From positions 1-29,841 of the forward strand of contig CAYITV010000001.1 in the NCBI GenBank assembly GCA_964366285.1: a DNA stretch of 29,841 nucleotides, in the 5' to 3' direction. Position numbers and translations under genes: made by a program. Source of the DNA: Candidatus Woesearchaeota archaeon (lineage in GTDB: Archaea; Nanobdellota; Nanobdellia; SCGC-AAA011-G17; UBA489). Shown here in pieces: positions 9,254-29,841 of the stretch (positions are counted from its first letter, which is position 1; every line of letters begins with the position of its first letter). A model generated the notes under the pieces. That model did not search any database and was not told where the DNA came from. It worked only from the letters and a program-made list of their open reading frames with translations.

Positions 9254-10354
9254 TGATGCCAGCTTATTGATTATCTTTTGGAATATGGTTGGCTGCTGAT
9301 GAATTGGCAGGCATTTTCCATCTGCAATGATGTTGCTGTTGCATTCGTAACTGAATTGAGCAGATTCACCTGCTTCTTTTTGCTTCTTGATATTTCCATC
9401 AATATCGCAGTATGATGGGACATCATTCAAACGTATTCTTGTCCTTTGCTGAAGGCATGCGTTGAATCCTGAGTTAGCATAACATAATCCTGGCTCGCAT
9501 TTATTTGAATCTTTGGATTTTTGCCTTGCCTTCTCGTCCCTAATTATCATTAAATCTGCCTGTGTCTGGTCAATCTCTTTCTGTGTTGCCTTTCTCTTAA
9601 CAGGTTTTTCAATTATTACCTGATTTTCTATTTCTTGAGCCTGCATATCTTCAATTTGCTGCTGCTTTTCAGTCATTTCTTCCTGGGTTGACTTTTGAGC
9701 TGCATCTGGAATATCCTGCGGCTGCGATGGAATAATTTCTGCAATCTTCATCCCAAATTTCACATTACCTGATGCCGGCAAGTCGATTACAGTTATTATT
9801 GACTGCTCTGAAAGCGTGTAGATGCTGCCTTTCTTGATAACGTCTGTCTTTTCCTGCTGGCCTGAATCAGATGTTATAGTGAACATGACACCCTCATGCT
9901 TTGGATCTTTGACAGCTTCCAATGTGAATGATTTTCCATTGATTTCATACCTTTTCTTTTCAGCAGAGTTTGCATCCTGGGAGACTGACAGCGAGTCAAT
10001 AGCATCATAGCTTTTCTCTTCGATTGTCCCTGTTTTAGGCGTGACAACCAATGAGCACTTATCCTTGGCTGCAGACAAAGCTTGTATGTAAAGCTGGCCA
10101 AGCTCTACGACAGATCCTACCTTGATACTCTTCTCATTTAGCTTGTCGACCCTTATCCTGCAGTAACCGCCATTCTCATTATTCGCATTCTTCAGTCTGA
10201 TGATATTATCACCAATATTTATTGATGAACCTTCATTGATGCTTGTTATGTCTGCAAGCGCAGGCTGGATCGACGCTAACATGGCAAGGAGCAGGAAGGA
10301 GATGCTCATTAAAGCGATGTTTCTCCTTCCTTTCGGGGCTTGCGGCATTCTCAT
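9242..10354 (-). CDS. Secreted/surface hypothetical protein: signal peptide, beta-rich domains, Q/E-rich linker, Cys-rich C-terminal module
   Basis: Hydrophobic N-terminus ending ALA-D; C-terminal CEPGLC...YCDIDG...YECNSN...GKC and an amphipathic IFQKIINKLASIFG tail. Confidence 0.75.
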   Translation of the reverse strand: MRMPQAPKGRRNIALMSISFLLLAMLASIQPALADITSINEGSSINIGDNIIRLKNANNENGGYCRIRVDKLNEKSIKVGSVVELGQLYIQALSAAKDKCSLVVTPKTGTIEEKSYDAIDSLSVSQDANSAEKKRYEINGKSFTLEAVKDPKHEGVMFTITSDSGQQEKTDVIKKGSIYTLSEQSIITVIDLPASGNVKFGMKIAEIIPSQPQDIPDAAQKSTQEEMTEKQQQIEDMQAQEIENQVIIEKPVKRKATQKEIDQTQADLMIIRDEKARQKSKDSNKCEPGLCYANSGFNACLQQRTRIRLNDVPSYCDIDGNIKKQKEAGESAQFSYECNSNIIADGKCLPIHQQPTIFQKIINKLASIFG

Positions 10355-10395
10355 ACGGTTTTTTCTCCTTCTTGATATTTAGTTGTTATTAGGTG

Positions 10396-10541
10396 TGTGG
10401 TGTTTAAAGGTACACCACAACCTGATGGGTAAAGACATCAGGTCTGTTAGCTGGACGGGTATAAATATCTTGGGCGGACCTGCCGTTCTTTTCAAGGGTC
10501 CATCCAGGACCAGATCAAAAAACAAGGCTGAAATCCGGTCC
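10396..10541 (-). ncRNA. Candidate structured RNA or cis-regulatory element (four stem-loops)
   Basis: Perfect 8-bp stems with 8-nt loops at 10396-10419 and 10420-10443; further stems at 10471-10506 and 10507-10541. G-U pairs favour the minus strand. Confidence 0.45.
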
Positions 10542-10557
10542 GTTTTTGTTAAGGAGC

Positions 10558-11637
10558 TCATTTTTGCATGAACCAGCTGCTTAATTTGATGCTCTTTGAA
10601 ACATCTGTGACATCAATGGACACGATCTTCCTTGACCTCAGCGAGTCAAGTATCCTGATAAGGGATGTTTTTGGGATCTGGGTGCCATGGCGGATTTTTC
10701 CCTGCGTGGAAATGCCATTGTTGTCCAAAAGGAACTGCACAACCAAACGCTCGCGGTTGTTAAGCGTCGGAAGGATATGCTTGACGCGCTGGGGGAGCGA
10801 GGATTCCTTTGGTTTTTTGGCAATCCTTCTTGATAATCTATTATTATTCCTCTGCTGCGGCTCTATCTTTTCTAATGCTGCTGGTTCTTTGACTTGGAAA
10901 GCGGACTCATGGCGCACGAAAAACCAGTATGCCAATCCCGCAGCAAAAATTGCCAAGAGAATTATCATGGCAAATAATGTGAATGATGAATCTAATGAGC
11001 TTGAAGTCGTTTCATCTTCAAGCTTAAGCCTGATTGCCTCGAAATCGCCGCGATTGAATGCGAGATGCTGCTGCTCAAATGAATCCTTGTATGAAGCTGT
11101 GATGATGCAATTTCCTGTCGGCACTGCCTGGATCGTAAACGCACCGAACTTGTCTGTCTTTATCTGCTCAATTGGCATGAAATCCTTGTCGCAATTTAAT
11201 TTTATCTCCGCCCCTTCCAAGAGATTATCCAGCTTGTCAACGACTGTGCCGCGGATTGATGCTATTGGAAACAGGTAGATTATCTCTTTATTGCTTTCTG
11301 ATACTGTAAACTTCTCAAACGCGTAGTAATCTTTCCCTTCTGTCTGGGCTTCATCTGCAATGAAGACTAGTTCGTACTCGCCGCTATTCAAGTAGATGCT
11401 TGCCATGTTTGTGTTGAGATATTCTGTTATTGACAATTCCTTGCCTGTCAAAATGTTCTTTTCATTAATCTTGAGGGTTACATTCGTTATGTTCCTGTCT
11501 GTCCCGACTTCATTAAGCGCGTAGACTAGATGATACGATTCTTGAGCATCTGCTGCAAGAGACAAGAACATGACAAGAGATGCAAATGCAAGAATAATTA
11601 TGCTATGTTTTCCTGAATGCGATAATGAATTGCTCAT
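10558..11637 (-). CDS. Membrane-anchored protein: extracellular carboxypeptidase-regulatory-like beta sandwich, TM helix, cytoplasmic C-terminal winged HTH
   Basis: Signal-like N-terminus; SIRGTVVDKLDNLLEGAEI...TDKFGAFTI; TM FTLFAMIILLAIFAAGLAYWFFV; wHTH 'TQGKIRHGTQIPKTSLIRILDSLRSRKIV'. Confidence 0.75.
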   Translation of the reverse strand: MSNSLSHSGKHSIIILAFASLVMFLSLAADAQESYHLVYALNEVGTDRNITNVTLKINEKNILTGKELSITEYLNTNMASIYLNSGEYELVFIADEAQTEGKDYYAFEKFTVSESNKEIIYLFPIASIRGTVVDKLDNLLEGAEIKLNCDKDFMPIEQIKTDKFGAFTIQAVPTGNCIITASYKDSFEQQHLAFNRGDFEAIRLKLEDETTSSSLDSSFTLFAMIILLAIFAAGLAYWFFVRHESAFQVKEPAALEKIEPQQRNNNRLSRRIAKKPKESSLPQRVKHILPTLNNRERLVVQFLLDNNGISTQGKIRHGTQIPKTSLIRILDSLRSRKIVSIDVTDVSKSIKLSSWFMQK

Positions 11638-25963: not shown

Positions 25964-26584
25964 TTACTCTTCCCCCAATTCTATTATTTCCTTCATTGCA
26001 TAATTTACTTTTTGTTCTGCGAGAAGATCTATTATTTTCATTTGCTCCTCTTTGGGAACGATAAAAACATTCGGTCCTATCTTTTTGCCTCCTTTCTGAT
26101 AGACTATTCCTTTTCCCTTATAATATTCTTCATCCCTTCCAAAAAGCATTCTCCTCGTTTTGATGTATTTTTTCTTTTCTTTTGGGTAAGTAATTACAAA
26201 AAGAACACTTCTTTCACCTGCAAGTGTATGTGGTTTCCTTGTATAGAGAGTGATACCCTCGCTGATGATGCTTGTTTTCAGATCCCATTCTTGAAGGCTG
26301 CCAGTTTGGACGGAAAATGGATATGTATGCTTCATGAGTTTCCATTTTTCATAATCTTGCGAGGAGGTAAATGTGACGATGGCTGACGCCATTCCCCTTT
26401 GAACAGTTTCTTCATCTTCTTTTGCGCATTCTACAAAGAGATCAATATCGCTTTTTTTCGTTAATTCACCGCGGACTGCTGATCCAAAGAGATGAACAGC
26501 ACGAATTTTTTTGTTTATTTCGCCTTTTTGAAATGCGAAGCTAAAGAGATTATAGCAGTAAGCAAGCGCATTAGTTGTTTGCAT
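25964..26584 (-). CDS. Minimal nucleotidyltransferase (MntA-like) with an additional C-terminal domain
   Basis: GS-X10-DID (GSAVRGELTKKSDID). Start chosen at ATG 26584; GTG 26599 is possible. Confidence 0.85.
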   Translation of the reverse strand: MQTTNALAYCYNLFSFAFQKGEINKKIRAVHLFGSAVRGELTKKSDIDLFVECAKEDEETVQRGMASAIVTFTSSQDYEKWKLMKHTYPFSVQTGSLQEWDLKTSIISEGITLYTRKPHTLAGERSVLFVITYPKEKKKYIKTRRMLFGRDEEYYKGKGIVYQKGGKKIGPNVFIVPKEEQMKIIDLLAEQKVNYAMKEIIELGEE

Positions 26585-27014
26585 CTTCAAGGTTTTCACC
26601 TGCCTCGAGAAGTAGTTTCAATAATATTTCTTTGTATTTTGTAAAGGTTTCTACCAATTCTTTGATGTCTGATTTCTCGCTCTTGCCATAAATGAGTTTA
26701 TTTCTCTTTTCTTCAATTGTGTAGAGCAAGTCGAGAATATCTGTTTTGTTGGCAAATTCCATCTTTAGTTTTCTTTCTGCAAGTGGTATAATTTTTTGGC
26801 CAGGAAACGGCCGTTTAAACCATTCATGCTTGATTTGCGCACCAATAGGAATTTTTCCTGTCTTGTGAAGATAGAGCTCAAGCAATTCGATAGAACATGC
26901 TGATGCATGAAACCCGATGGTTGCCGGCCTTAACTCTATGCCAATGGCTATGGCATCCTTTAGTTCTTGGAGATGCTCCTGGATCTTTGCCTTGTGAACA
27001 TGAGCGGCTGGCAT
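26571..27014 (-). CDS. HEPN-like protein, partner of the MNT
   Basis: Helical protein with an R-X4-Y motif (RNKLIY); overlaps the MNT start. TATA about 21 nt before ATG 27014. Confidence 0.7.
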   Translation of the reverse strand: MPAAHVHKAKIQEHLQELKDAIAIGIELRPATIGFHASACSIELLELYLHKTGKIPIGAQIKHEWFKRPFPGQKIIPLAERKLKMEFANKTDILDLLYTIEEKRNKLIYGKSEKSDIKELVETFTKYKEILLKLLLEAGENLEDANN

Positions 27015-27015
27015 A

Positions 27016-27066
27016 GTGGTAGAAAAGTACCACTTATTTATAAATTTTGTGGTAGGAAAGTACCAT
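27016..27066. promoter_or_regulatory. Two 18-bp palindromic operator-like sites flanking the TATA box of the HEPN-MNT operon
   Basis: GTGGTA-GAAAAG-TACCAC (27016-27033) and GTGGTA-GGAAAG-TACCAT (27049-27066), with TTATTTATAAATTTT between them. Confidence 0.75.
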
Positions 27067-27113
27067 AAGCATAACATCCTAAGAGTGGCCATACTACAAG
27101 GTTTAAATGCGAC

Positions 27114-27791
27114 TTAAATTATGTCAAACTTGCTGTCTAGAAGAAGAATTGTTTGATTAAGAACCTTAGCATTATAGGCCTGGCCTGCATTGATGATGTT
27201 GATATTACCAGAAACATCAAAAGGCACCTGAACAGAACCGCCAGAATATAACCTCGTGAAAGTAACTTGACGGTTTAAATTGTCAATGTAGTCAACTCTC
27301 CATATATCCGGCGACATCTGGCCAGTACAACCGAATTGAATGCATATATTTACCGTCGGGAATATTATAGTATCAAACGCCTGAACCATCTTGTTTCTGT
27401 TTGCATTAAATGAAAGGAATAATTTGTTGCTTGTTTCATCATATCGAAGTTTGTTGACAATTCCTGCTTGTATTAAATCTGCTTCAGCACCAAAATGATC
27501 TGTCCTCGATGGGTCATATACAAACTGTTTTATTCCGTTAATATTGAAGGTTAATTGATTAACATTTTCATCGACAGAAACAAACTTAGCATTAGCATAA
27601 CCTGGCGGATTTGGAATCCTGAACTGCTCACCTACTTCAATCACCTGGTATGGAAAAAAATTGATGGAATCTGAAAACCTTGCTGATTGAGTGCTTAAAA
27701 CCTGCTGGCCAGTCATACCTTTTCCAAAGAGTGATAAAGATACTGCAAGAACAAGTATAATAATTACAGTAGTGATGTACCCCTTTTCCAT
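27114..27791 (-). CDS. Membrane-anchored/secreted hypothetical protein
   Basis: N-terminal TM helix followed by GMTG; beta-rich, Asn-rich body. Confidence 0.7.
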   Translation of the reverse strand: MEKGYITTVIIILVLAVSLSLFGKGMTGQQVLSTQSARFSDSINFFPYQVIEVGEQFRIPNPPGYANAKFVSVDENVNQLTFNINGIKQFVYDPSRTDHFGAEADLIQAGIVNKLRYDETSNKLFLSFNANRNKMVQAFDTIIFPTVNICIQFGCTGQMSPDIWRVDYIDNLNRQVTFTRLYSGGSVQVPFDVSGNINIINAGQAYNAKVLNQTILLLDSKFDII

Positions 27792-27868: not shown

Positions 27869-28558
27869 ATGGTGATAAAAGAGCGTGTTTTGGAGCATCC
27901 TGGAAGCTTTTACGTGTTTAGAATCCATGAAGCGAAGACAAATCAGCTATGCAATGGAAACGGCTTTGCACCTTTGAAAACGTATCTCTCCTCTGTGTTT
28001 GAGCAGTGTCCTGACAAGTATTTCCATGAAGGACCTAGAAGCAGCTGCCTGAAATTTAGGATGAACCATGATTTAATTGAAGTGAGAGGGCACGAGGTAA
28101 GCACGCTAGCGAAGTATGGATTACTGGAGAATCAGCAGAGGTACAAGGACAACCATTCACGCGTGCAGATGTTTATGCTAGAACATGACAGTAACACTGT
28201 TGCGATGGAAGTGCCTTTGTGGCTGCATGAGCAGGAATTGGAAGGGTATCATGAACTGTTTGGAAGCGCATTGCCATTGAGCGGGCATATTGATGTGCTG
28301 AGAGTGGATGACGGCAAGGTGTGGATATGGGATTACAAACCACATGCGCAGAAAGAAAAGTATGCAGCAACGCAGGTGTATTTCTATTCCTTGATGCTGA
28401 GCAAGAGAACGGGAATTCCTTTGGAACATTTCAGATGCGGATACTTTGATGATGTGCATGCGTATTTATTTCAACCGAAAGAAGGATTATTACAGAAAGA
28501 AAAGAAAACCTCATTGATGGATTTTAACGAGACAAGTAATATCCATACACTTTCATAA
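27869..28558 (+). CDS. PD-(D/E)XK (RecB-like) nuclease
   Basis: MEVP, GHID, DYK and QVYFY motifs. Confidence 0.82.
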   Translation: MVIKERVLEHPGSFYVFRIHEAKTNQLCNGNGFAPLKTYLSSVFEQCPDKYFHEGPRSSCLKFRMNHDLIEVRGHEVSTLAKYGLLENQQRYKDNHSRVQMFMLEHDSNTVAMEVPLWLHEQELEGYHELFGSALPLSGHIDVLRVDDGKVWIWDYKPHAQKEKYAATQVYFYSLMLSKRTGIPLEHFRCGYFDDVHAYLFQPKEGLLQKEKKTSLMDFNETSNIHTLS

Positions 28559-29228
28559 CCTTCTGCACATAGTTGGTTGTTTCTATTGCGTGCGATTTTG
28601 TAACGACTGGCAGAATTGTTGCAATCGATTCCCATTGATTTTGGGAGAGCACTGCATATGCCTCTATGTTTTCATAGGTGTGCTTTTTGTTTCCGCGCTG
28701 GATTGTAATGCTATTTTTTCCTTGCTGTGCCGCCTCGATGATCTTTTGACAGGCGATGATATTATTTGGACCTGCATTATAAGCTCCAAGGGCAAATTTC
28801 CACCTTTCCAATCCTTGTTCTCGGGAGAAGATATCATACATCCTTCTCAAATAAGCTGCACCGCCAAGGATACTTTGTTCTGGGCTACAACGATCTGTGA
28901 CCCCAACTTCTTTGGCTGCCGCTTCCATTAATTGCGAGAGGCCTTTTGCGCCTGCTTTTGAGGTGCTAATTGGATTGAAGCTAGATTCTACATTGATAAG
29001 GGCGGCATAGAGATGCTGTGAGATATTGTTAGATACTTCTGCATCATGTATTAAATCTTGGTATGGATAAGATAGAGTTGATGCGTGTTCTTCGTACGGC
29101 GTAAACGAGCTTTCTACTTGTTGTTCAAGTGATGATTGTTTTGGAAGAGCGGGGCATGCTATCATTAAACCAGATGCAGTTCCTATTACTGCTGCGAGTA
29201 TTGATTTTGGGAGTGAGAAGTTTGTCAT
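28524..29228 (-). CDS. Lytic transglycosylase (SLT domain) with an N-terminal signal/lipoprotein-like sequence
   Basis: LINVESSFNP (catalytic Glu), GAKGLSQLM, SILGGAAYL, ALGAYNAG and ETTNYV motifs. Confidence 0.92.
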   Translation of the reverse strand: MTNFSLPKSILAAVIGTASGLMIACPALPKQSSLEQQVESSFTPYEEHASTLSYPYQDLIHDAEVSNNISQHLYAALINVESSFNPISTSKAGAKGLSQLMEAAAKEVGVTDRCSPEQSILGGAAYLRRMYDIFSREQGLERWKFALGAYNAGPNNIIACQKIIEAAQQGKNSITIQRGNKKHTYENIEAYAVLSQNQWESIATILPVVTKSHAIETTNYVQKVMKVYGYYLSR

Positions 29229-29245
29229 CTTTTTTGACTTGCTGT

Positions 29246-29841
29246 TTAGTTTTTCGGTGCGCCTTCGGTGCACACAAGCACCCCGAGCGAGGCAACCGAG
29301 TACTGAGGGACCCCATAGCAGTCGAGGTCAGCCCTGACCGAATCAGCGTAGAACCTCGCGACAGCATCATCGATAGGAGAATAGAAATGGATATGCTTTC
29401 CTCTTTGATATCCTTGATATGTTGATTTCTTAATAGCTAATCCTTGCTTGTTAAATGATCTTGGATTAAGATCGATGAGACAACCATTAGCATTCATAAT
29501 ACACTTTTCCAAAGGACTGACGATAGATTGAACAGAATTTCCAAATAATCCTTCAAACTTGTTTTCTGTGGCTGCACAATAGCTTGTTTCTATACAAAAA
29601 TGACCTTGGTCATCTTTCTTAAAATAGGTGGCAAGATTTATCCAACAATCAGCTGTCAAACGCTCATAGAGGTCATGCATACTTCTTTCCGATAGCGGGT
29701 TGCCATAACCATTGAAAAGAGTTGTTTTTTTGCTGTGTGCAGAAACAACATTAATGAGATGGGGGATGAATAAAGATGTACCTACAACTGAAAGGCCTTC
29801 ATCAGCTGCTGCATAAACAGGGGTTCCGCAAGAATTGGCTA
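29246..29841 (-). CDS. Probable DGR target protein (CLec-type C-terminus); 5' end beyond the window
   Basis: The frame is open from the window edge (ANSCGTPVY...SMHDLY), so the listed 144-aa ORF is only the C-terminal part. It ends in a VR-like segment. Confidence 0.72.
   Translation of the reverse strand, partial: ANSCGTPVYAAADEGLSVVGTSLFIPHLINVVSAHSKKTTLFNGYGNPLSERSMHDLYERLTADCWINLATYFKKDDQGHFCIETSYCAATENKFEGLFGNSVQSIVSPLEKCIMNANGCLIDLNPRSFNKQGLAIKKSTYQGYQRGKHIHFYSPIDDAVARFYADSVRADLDCYGVPQYSVASLGVLVCTEGAPKN
29257..29273 (-). promoter_or_regulatory. GAA-loop hairpin just 3' of the putative variable region (DGR homing hairpin candidate)
   Basis: GTGCACC-GAA-GGCGCAC; 6/7 Watson-Crick pairs. 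Confidence 0.55.
29279..29362 (-). other. Putative DGR variable region (VR)
   Basis: 28 codons, none ending in A; 9/84 A and 53/84 GC, versus 39/120 GC at 29401-29520. Encodes VARFYADSVRADLDCYGVPQYSVASLGV. Confidence 0.7.

Follow-up and report, generated by a model that had tools for sequence, protein, structure and literature searches.

The diversity-generating retroelements (DGRs) of Nanoarchaeota carry a short initiation of mutagenic homing motif (IMH), TGGGGT, that differs from its counterpart (IMH*), TGGAAT, and their target genes contain GRA-loop hairpins (Paul 2015, PMC4372165); the product of one such target, AvpA (Nanoarchaeota, DUSEL4/SCGC AAA011-G17; PMC4372165; PMC5006420; PDB 5IOO), is a small protein with a single C-type-lectin domain and its variable region (VR) near the C-terminus. 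Another DGR-diversified lectin-fold binder, Mtd of the Bordetella phage BPP-1, is built into the structure of an extracellular particle, the receptor of which is known. Proteins with an SLT lytic transglycosylase domain have been described in DPANN archaea, organisms expected to have no murein of their own, with export predicted and lengths of up to ~3,000 amino acids (aa) (Castelle 2021, PMC8204110, where Rinke 2013 and Castelle 2015 are cited for such proteins as well). Here, we deal with a locus at which these two kinds of gene meet. It lies at the end of a 29,841-nucleotide (nt) stretch of DNA from Candidatus Woesearchaeota archaeon (assembly GCA_964366285.1, contig CAYITV010000001.1), hereafter the window, which corresponds to positions 1-29841 of contig C1 in a genome of 816 kb, 115 contigs and 40% GC that is estimated to be 90% complete. 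The sequence occurs in runs of groundwater metagenomes. A gene that we call gene B, which joins the AvpA-like kind of Nanoarchaeota DGR variable proteins, is followed on the same strand by an SLT gene, which joins the known DPANN SLT-domain proteins. What is seen are components of known kinds that lie in a fast-evolving slot for cell-wall hydrolases, and their functional coupling is possible but unproven.

Judged by its AlphaFold2 model (pLDDT 87, pTM 0.84; confident over most of the protein), the predicted product of gene B is a C-type-lectin-fold member of the AvpA-like DGR variable-protein family, as the best structural match in a wide VIA-align search was AvpA itself (5ioo_B; Z 6.3, 140 residues, rmsd 4.1) and the second was TaqVP (5vf4, Z 5.9), with C-type lectin domains making up nearly all of the other 48 listed rows and Mtd found among the weaker matches (1yu0, Z 4.0); these Z values are moderate and the match list is uniform. 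The lectin fold comes from the exhaustive aligner only, Foldseek against PDB having returned nothing at E <= 0.001 with the same model, and neither gene B nor gene A (the gene upstream of it) nor P0036 (a variable protein found in relatives) has a match in Pfam or PDB sequence searches. Like AvpA, the product of gene B is small, has a single C-type-lectin domain with the VR near the C-terminus and carries no signal peptide; like the Nanoarchaeota DGRs, gene B has an IMH-like motif that ends in GGGGT, as opposed to the GGAAT of the template repeat (TR), and a GRA-loop hairpin in the target gene. Unlike AvpA, however, it shows no sequence-level match to AvpA, has no cognate TR in the genome and is not located beside a reverse transcriptase (RT) gene, sitting instead between another DGR target and the SLT gene.

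That gene B belongs to a family that is rewritten by DGRs is best seen from its relatives. A profile made of gene B and two homologs matches 75 of the 240 genomes of the order, often as tandem arrays, and 566 representative clusters in a library of 1.8 billion proteins, and where a TR could be paired with a VR, every mismatch fell on a TR adenine (11/11 in L028, 12/12 in L051), family members of L028, L033, L044 and L051 lying within 1.5 kb of RTs of the type found on contig C15 of the genome studied here. Gene B itself keeps the full VR architecture without a matching TR in the assembly: its 3' end runs through a VR-like core, a GTT codon, the IMH-like motif GCCTCGCTCGGGGT, which ends in CTCGGGGT, and a GAA-loop hairpin that still lies within the coding region; the last 120 nt of the gene have a GC content of 60% vs 37% for the rest, and all adenines of the 68-nt core (9/9) stand at positions at which the family TRs have an A. 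The hairpin was also considered as a strong structure in its own right and rejected as such (z -0.6 to -1.5, unexceptional). As a separate observation on the family, 17 of its 147 complete representatives, P0052, P0055, P0059, P0070, P0073 and P0082 among them, share a conserved N-terminal peptide, IPxxFxGxxIxG[AS]hx[RK]VL, ahead of a linker rich in P, Q, S and T, and nine further representatives carry an "EAYE"-type variant of it; the peptide, which gene B does not have, might serve in docking or targeting.

Gene B is preceded by gene A, which is a genuine DGR target and is currently templated by the TR of contig C44: the VR of gene A (C1 30051-30130) and that TR (C44:385-464) differ at 10 of 80 positions, all of them TR adenines, and the TR precedes an intact RT of 348 aa. 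The full length of gene A was obtained by way of a 55-nt exact overlap that joins contig C59 to the end of C1. Its promoter and first codons are present in two 93%-identical copies, one at C20 1-87, beside PolB, and the other at C59 5195-5278, the former implying a paralog, the VR end of which opens contig C44. The products of genes A and B are both small lectin-fold proteins with no signal peptides, of two unrelated DGR-rewritten families; homology among gene A, gene B and P0036 was tried and dismissed, as pairwise scores were no better than those of shuffled sequences.

The enzyme downstream is the sole SLT match in the genome (family 1 lytic transglycosylases, GH23; PF01464, 75.9 bits vs a cut-off of 21.3, E 2.5e-21, residues 74-175), and in an alignment of 31 sequences E81, S82, S90, G96 and Q99 are invariant, the A149-Y-N-A-G153 stretch being present as well. 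Its N-terminal segment, with a Kyte-Doolittle 15-aa maximum of 2.14 (residues 9-24), is probably a signal peptide or a membrane anchor, which is also the safer reading because the cysteine at position 25, that would fit a lipobox and make the protein a lipoprotein, is not conserved in orthologs, being Tyr in P0042 and absent in P0002. These orthologs are 76-78% (P0042) and 54-56% (P0002) identical to it, the nearest relatives outside the clade being small SLT proteins from metagenomes (36-48%). SLT-domain matches exist in 138 of the 240 genomes of the order, whereas this particular SLT was found in 4 of the 24 genomes of the same family and was not found in either of the two genomes of the same genus. 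Like the DPANN proteins described before, it belongs to an archaeon expected to lack murein and is predicted to be exported; unlike the long ones among them, it is a single-domain protein.

All three genes point the same way on the minus strand, gene A ending 9 nt ahead of gene B, and with such spacing A, B and SLT look like one operon. Neither a sigma-70-like promoter nor an intrinsic-terminator-like site is present in the spacer between gene B and SLT, no stretch of at least five T is found between these two genes, and on the coding strand one has to go back ~220 nt from the SLT ATG to meet the nearest upstream TATA-like match. Upstream of gene A, on the other hand, there is GTAACAAATAGAAAGATTTATATA, with the promoter motif GTAACAAATAGAAAGATTTATA, and the same motif precedes the gene B ortholog of L020, a metagenome contig from a close relative; one conserved TATA promoter thus probably drives all three genes as a single transcript. 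A first-pass annotation of the window, made from the letters alone, had already placed the SLT start 17 nt past the stop of the upstream gene (29246) on the same strand, had seen no recognisable promoter or terminator between them, and had noted an upstream in-frame GTG overlapping the hairpin, and the coordinates (Table 1) agree with it on each of these; its suggestion of co-transcription is plausible by spacing and motifs. The identities it proposed can be upheld too, gene B being a member of a DGR-type lectin-fold family and its neighbour an SLT with predicted export, and so can the attribution to an archaeal, DPANN-type organism; the neighbourhood holds archaeal genes for FEN1, PolB and Cdc6 and a histone-like open reading frame (ORF), the last recognised by eye only.

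Table 1. Coordinates of the features discussed; positions refer to contig C1 unless another contig or locus is named
Feature	Position	Strand	Remarks
Gene A	C1 29999-30437 + C59 5242-5499 (L004 2751-3188 minus)	-	214 aa; just beyond the window
Gene B, 3' 197 codons + stop	29246..29841	-	ORF; continues past the window end
Gene B TAA stop	29248-29246	-	
VR-like core, 68 nt	29297..29364	-	Homologous to TRs of the gene-B DGR family
GTT codon, then IMH-like motif GCCTCGCTCGGGGT	29279..29296	-	
GAA-loop hairpin GTGCACC-GAA-GGCGCAC, in the last codons of gene B	29257..29273	-	
In-frame GTG of the SLT frame (first three hairpin bases)	29273-29271	-	
17-nt spacer ACAGCAAGTCAAAAAAG, gene B stop to SLT start	29229..29245	-	
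SLT lytic transglycosylase gene, 234 aa + stop; ATG 29228-29226	28524..29228	-	
SLT hydrophobic N-terminal segment, residues 9-24, SILAAVIGTASGLMIA	29157..29204	-	Kyte-Doolittle
SLT catalytic Glu81 codon, E-S motif	28986..28988	-	Alignment
PD-(D/E)XK nuclease gene, convergent with SLT	27869..28558	+	Pfam PDDEXK_1, E 2.6e-6
G002 Peptidase_M15_3, hydrophobic N-terminus	L093 (G002:C1:500000-519999) 10097-10750	-	

The same slot was compared in relatives. On L020, the order is PolB, the gene B ortholog (67% identity), 15 nt and the SLT ortholog (76%), whereas PolB has 94% identity to that of the genome studied here, so the slot evolves fast. On L018/L019, PolB (81%) is followed by P0036, 69 nt, SLT (54%), the PD-(D/E)XK nuclease gene and an MNT-HEPN pair; P0036 ends in TTTCGGGGTAC and a perfect GAA-loop hairpin, and its family has been validated as DGR-diversified elsewhere, with mismatches at adenines only (16/16 in L095, 5/5 in L103) and RTs adjacent. 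In G002, a genome of the same genus that is 96% complete and consists of 4 contigs, the order is FEN1, PD-(D/E)XK nuclease, a Peptidase_M15_3 of 217 aa and PolB, with no gene A, no gene B and no SLT in the slot, so that here a different murein hydrolase has taken the place of SLT. The PD-(D/E)XK gene, the 3' end of which overlaps that of SLT by 35 nt (28524-28558), is a conserved flank of the slot (75% identity in G002, 77% in L018/L019). A peptidoglycan hydrolase with predicted export occupies the PolB/PD-(D/E)XK slot in four of four relatives, SLT in three and the M15 peptidase in one, and is preceded by zero, one or two DGR-family genes. Such non-orthologous replacement of SLT by M15 within a genus argues for selection to keep some murein-degrading activity, and the constancy of a hydrolase in the slot agrees with what has been proposed for Woesearchaeota and Pacearchaeota, namely an action on bacterial walls (Castelle 2021, PMC8204110).

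Taken together, we regard it as rather probable that the variable genes have accreted in a fast-evolving host-interaction locus, their co-expression with the hydrolase being incidental or loosely adaptive. Under such an account, DGR variable-protein genes of three families would come and go between promoter and hydrolase, accreting behind the same conserved TATA promoter, from which the cluster would be transcribed as one unit, and so be co-expressed with the hydrolase; the VR of gene B would either be served by an unassembled element or have ceased to be rewritten; and the hydrolase would be exported and cut bacterial murein in the course of attachment, attack or scavenging. Accretion in a variable island had been named by the first-pass annotation as the alternative to its own favoured mechanism, and it turns out to fit better than that mechanism because the G002 slot holds a lone M15 peptidase with no variable gene. 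Several points, however, weigh against accretion as told here and should be stated together. Members of three DGR-target families (A, B and P0036) stand before SLT in three related genomes, which exceeds a single chance insertion and could reflect selection for co-expression; gene A can be joined in more than one way at its upstream end, as either C59 or C20 could continue into C1 or C44; co-transcription was deduced from motifs only; export was predicted from hydrophobicity only, and a non-classical route may serve the variable proteins; and, because the genome is 90% complete and broken at its DGR loci, the TR cognate to gene B may be missing from it. The probabilities that we attach to accretion and to the next two readings overlap, these readings being neither mutually exclusive nor additive.

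Gene B might also be a former DGR target that has lost its template, a sub-case compatible with accretion in which the gene would now evolve like any other or decay, its adjacency to SLT then being nothing but ancestry shared with L020, and we consider this unlikely, though far from negligible. Inside the window, no repeat of the gene B VR is present, and the closest TR of the genome (C15:80-147) differs from the gene B core at 17 of 68 positions, of which 10 are TR adenines and 7 are not; the TR of contig C74 has 21 mismatches. Validated TR/VR pairs of relatives share an 11-nt pair-specific motif, GCTNNNCTCGG, between IMH and IMH*, and an IMH* cognate to gene B would read GCCTCGCTCGGAAT; no IMH* matching the gene B motif occurs anywhere in this genome, that of the nearest TR differing from it at 4 of 11 positions. 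Scanning JGI metagenomes with a pattern that combined the expected TR tail and IMH* turned up three family TRs, each with 7-8 non-adenine differences, and one unrelated match, none of them cognate to the VR of gene B or of L020. The hairpin of gene B, the 7-bp stem of which contains one A.C mismatch, is not the minimum-energy fold, and the C74 TR stands beside a truncated RT-like ORF, for which Pfam gave no match. In addition, P0040, the ortholog of gene B, does not differ among the 7 contigs (6 samples) that carry it and is the sole member of its 90% cluster, contigs of two runs of one study (X1 and X3) carry the same gene B VR, and no VR variants were found in the low-depth Logan contigs of four groundwater runs, a comparison that rests on a depth of 3-6x and on contigs only and in which 29318-29364 is matched by TR/VR copies from other organisms.

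Loss of the template would, however, sit poorly with several other observations. The reading frame of gene B is intact, with a fold model that is confident over most of the protein, and its divergence from the L020 ortholog is concentrated where a DGR would have put it, 7 of 19 TR-adenine sites differing vs 5 of 45 others (Fisher p 0.03), which is indicative of rewriting since the two lineages split; in addition, the non-A core sites are more conserved than the remainder of the gene (11% vs 24% divergence), and the assembly is broken at each of its DGR loci, so that a TR may be missing from it. The first-pass annotation called the gene VR-bearing and hypervariable. Hypervariability is a property of the family of gene B, the signs of activity in this particular copy being mixed; the VR label is confirmed in part, the homology to family TRs, the GC shift and the placement of its adenines speaking for it, the lack of a TR and the non-adenine mismatches to the C15 TR against it.

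Some features of the DGR loci of this genome deserve mention in their own right. Three RVT_1 matches exceed the Pfam cut-off (on C15, C90 and C44), the one on C15 being of the type that adjoins gene-B-family genes in relatives. The TRs of the gene B type (L028 1646-1775, L051 3058-3185, C15 80-190 and C74 ~3880-4011) contain an extra 17-24 nt before IMH*, located after the variable part ending in ...CAGAACTCGAAA and absent from the cognate VRs. The RT-like ORF of C74 (227 aa; C74 3371-4054 minus, L108) is 70% identical at the DNA level to the C15 RT, and it and its TR are probably a decayed DGR cassette. Contig C90 bears a third TR/VR pair (2122-2189 / 2613-2680, L109) with 5 differences in 68 nt, which is not strictly adenine-specific on account of two G-to-T changes (coding strand) that are clustered with an A-to-T one.

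In the mechanism favoured by the first-pass annotation, "recognise-and-breach", DGR-diversified binders would recognise bacterial surface ligands and direct or license the opening of the wall by SLT, allowing an episymbiotic archaeon to switch partner or prey, much as a switch of cell-surface ligand has been proposed for the lectin-fold binder Mtd. There is something to be said for such a module, since the genes are tightly spaced and co-directional with no promoter or terminator motifs between them, L020 shows the same pairing and L018 a gene of a different DGR family ahead of SLT, the presence of three unrelated target families directly before SLT being suggestive, B and SLT evolve much faster than PolB, an action on bacterial hosts has been proposed for the SLT-domain proteins of Woesearchaeota and Pacearchaeota (Castelle 2021, PMC8204110), and a role in symbiosis has been suggested for AvpA-like proteins (Handa 2016, PMC5006420). 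Against the module, no N-terminal hydrophobic stretch is present in gene B, its ortholog, gene A or any of the 147 family representatives, so the export signal that the first-pass annotation proposed to look for at the N-terminus of the target was not found; archaeal DGR targets likewise have no membrane or export signal, their genuine non-membrane status being not established (Roux et al. 2021, PMC8144416). In having no export signal, the variable proteins of this locus differ from Mtd with its place in an extracellular particle.

Recurrence, the other expectation, fares no better. Pairing of a DGR-family gene with SLT was found in three genomes only (this one, L020 and L018), all of which have the flanking synteny in common, and no partner gene was found within +/- 1.5 kb at the 29 best gene B loci, 12 loci of the P0036 family and 42 SLT loci of the order; outside close syntenic relatives, adjacency of a DGR target and SLT was thus not seen at the loci sampled from this order. 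An SLT domain and a gene-B-family gene occur together in ~51 other genomes of the order, in none of them adjacent according to the hit tables (the nearest at 3.6 and 7.5 kb), and wall hydrolases sought at the other DGR loci of this genome were not there, the neighbours being housekeeping genes (diphthamide synthase, ribosomal protein and Cdc6 genes). A Rosetta-stone type of argument was tried and abandoned as well, seven long proteins of the gene B family having no SLT domain (four of the seven show two profile-matched stretches instead), so no fusion of the two is known among long family members. With the G002 slot occupied by an M15 peptidase alone and gene B having no cognate TR, a binder with no predicted export route that is paired with SLT only in close syntenic relatives leaves the recognise-and-breach mechanism unsupported, and we consider the module improbable, somewhat more so than the loss of the template; that the signal-less variable proteins act with the hydrolase as adaptable targeting or licensing factors, against or onto bacterial walls, seems to us a little less credible again. 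An error of assembly or binning as the source of the B-SLT adjacency is very improbable indeed, for even though gene B is interrupted by a 10-N scaffold gap (contig positions 29842-29851, directly after the window) and C1 ends in a repeated region, the sequence is continuous from the gene B stop through the spacer to the SLT start, the groundwater metagenome run X1 has a 235-nt contig that covers 29087-29321 with zero differences, the orthologous junction is also present on L020, an independent metagenome contig, and the scaffolding across the gap is sound because both halves of gene B, which beyond the gap reaches an ATG at contig position 29986 and would thus measure about 246 aa, align to one full-length ortholog (P0040, 237 aa, 67% identity).

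Two further observations concern the surroundings. Between FEN1 and the PD-(D/E)XK gene, the window (25964-27791) contains an MNT (211 aa)/HEPN (173 aa) pair and a protein of 225 aa with a hydrophobic N-terminus, a block that is a second insertion in the region, as it is absent at the syntenic site of G002. On C15 (6047-7192, L106), 5 kb downstream of the RT, there is an IS605 OrfB/TnpB-like gene with a Cas12f1-like TNB domain.

A search of the full-text literature found no paper that combines DGRs, DPANN and a transglycosylase, and the operon-like juxtaposition of a DGR target and an SLT gene therefore appears to be undescribed, confined as it is to one small clade. With accretion behind a shared promoter as the preferred account, the locus would offer a concrete context, namely probable co-expression with an enzyme acting on bacterial walls, for the enigmatic lectin-fold DGR targets of DPANN archaea, and, were the variable proteins and the hydrolase truly to cooperate, this clade would give the AvpA-like targets of DPANN their first functional context.

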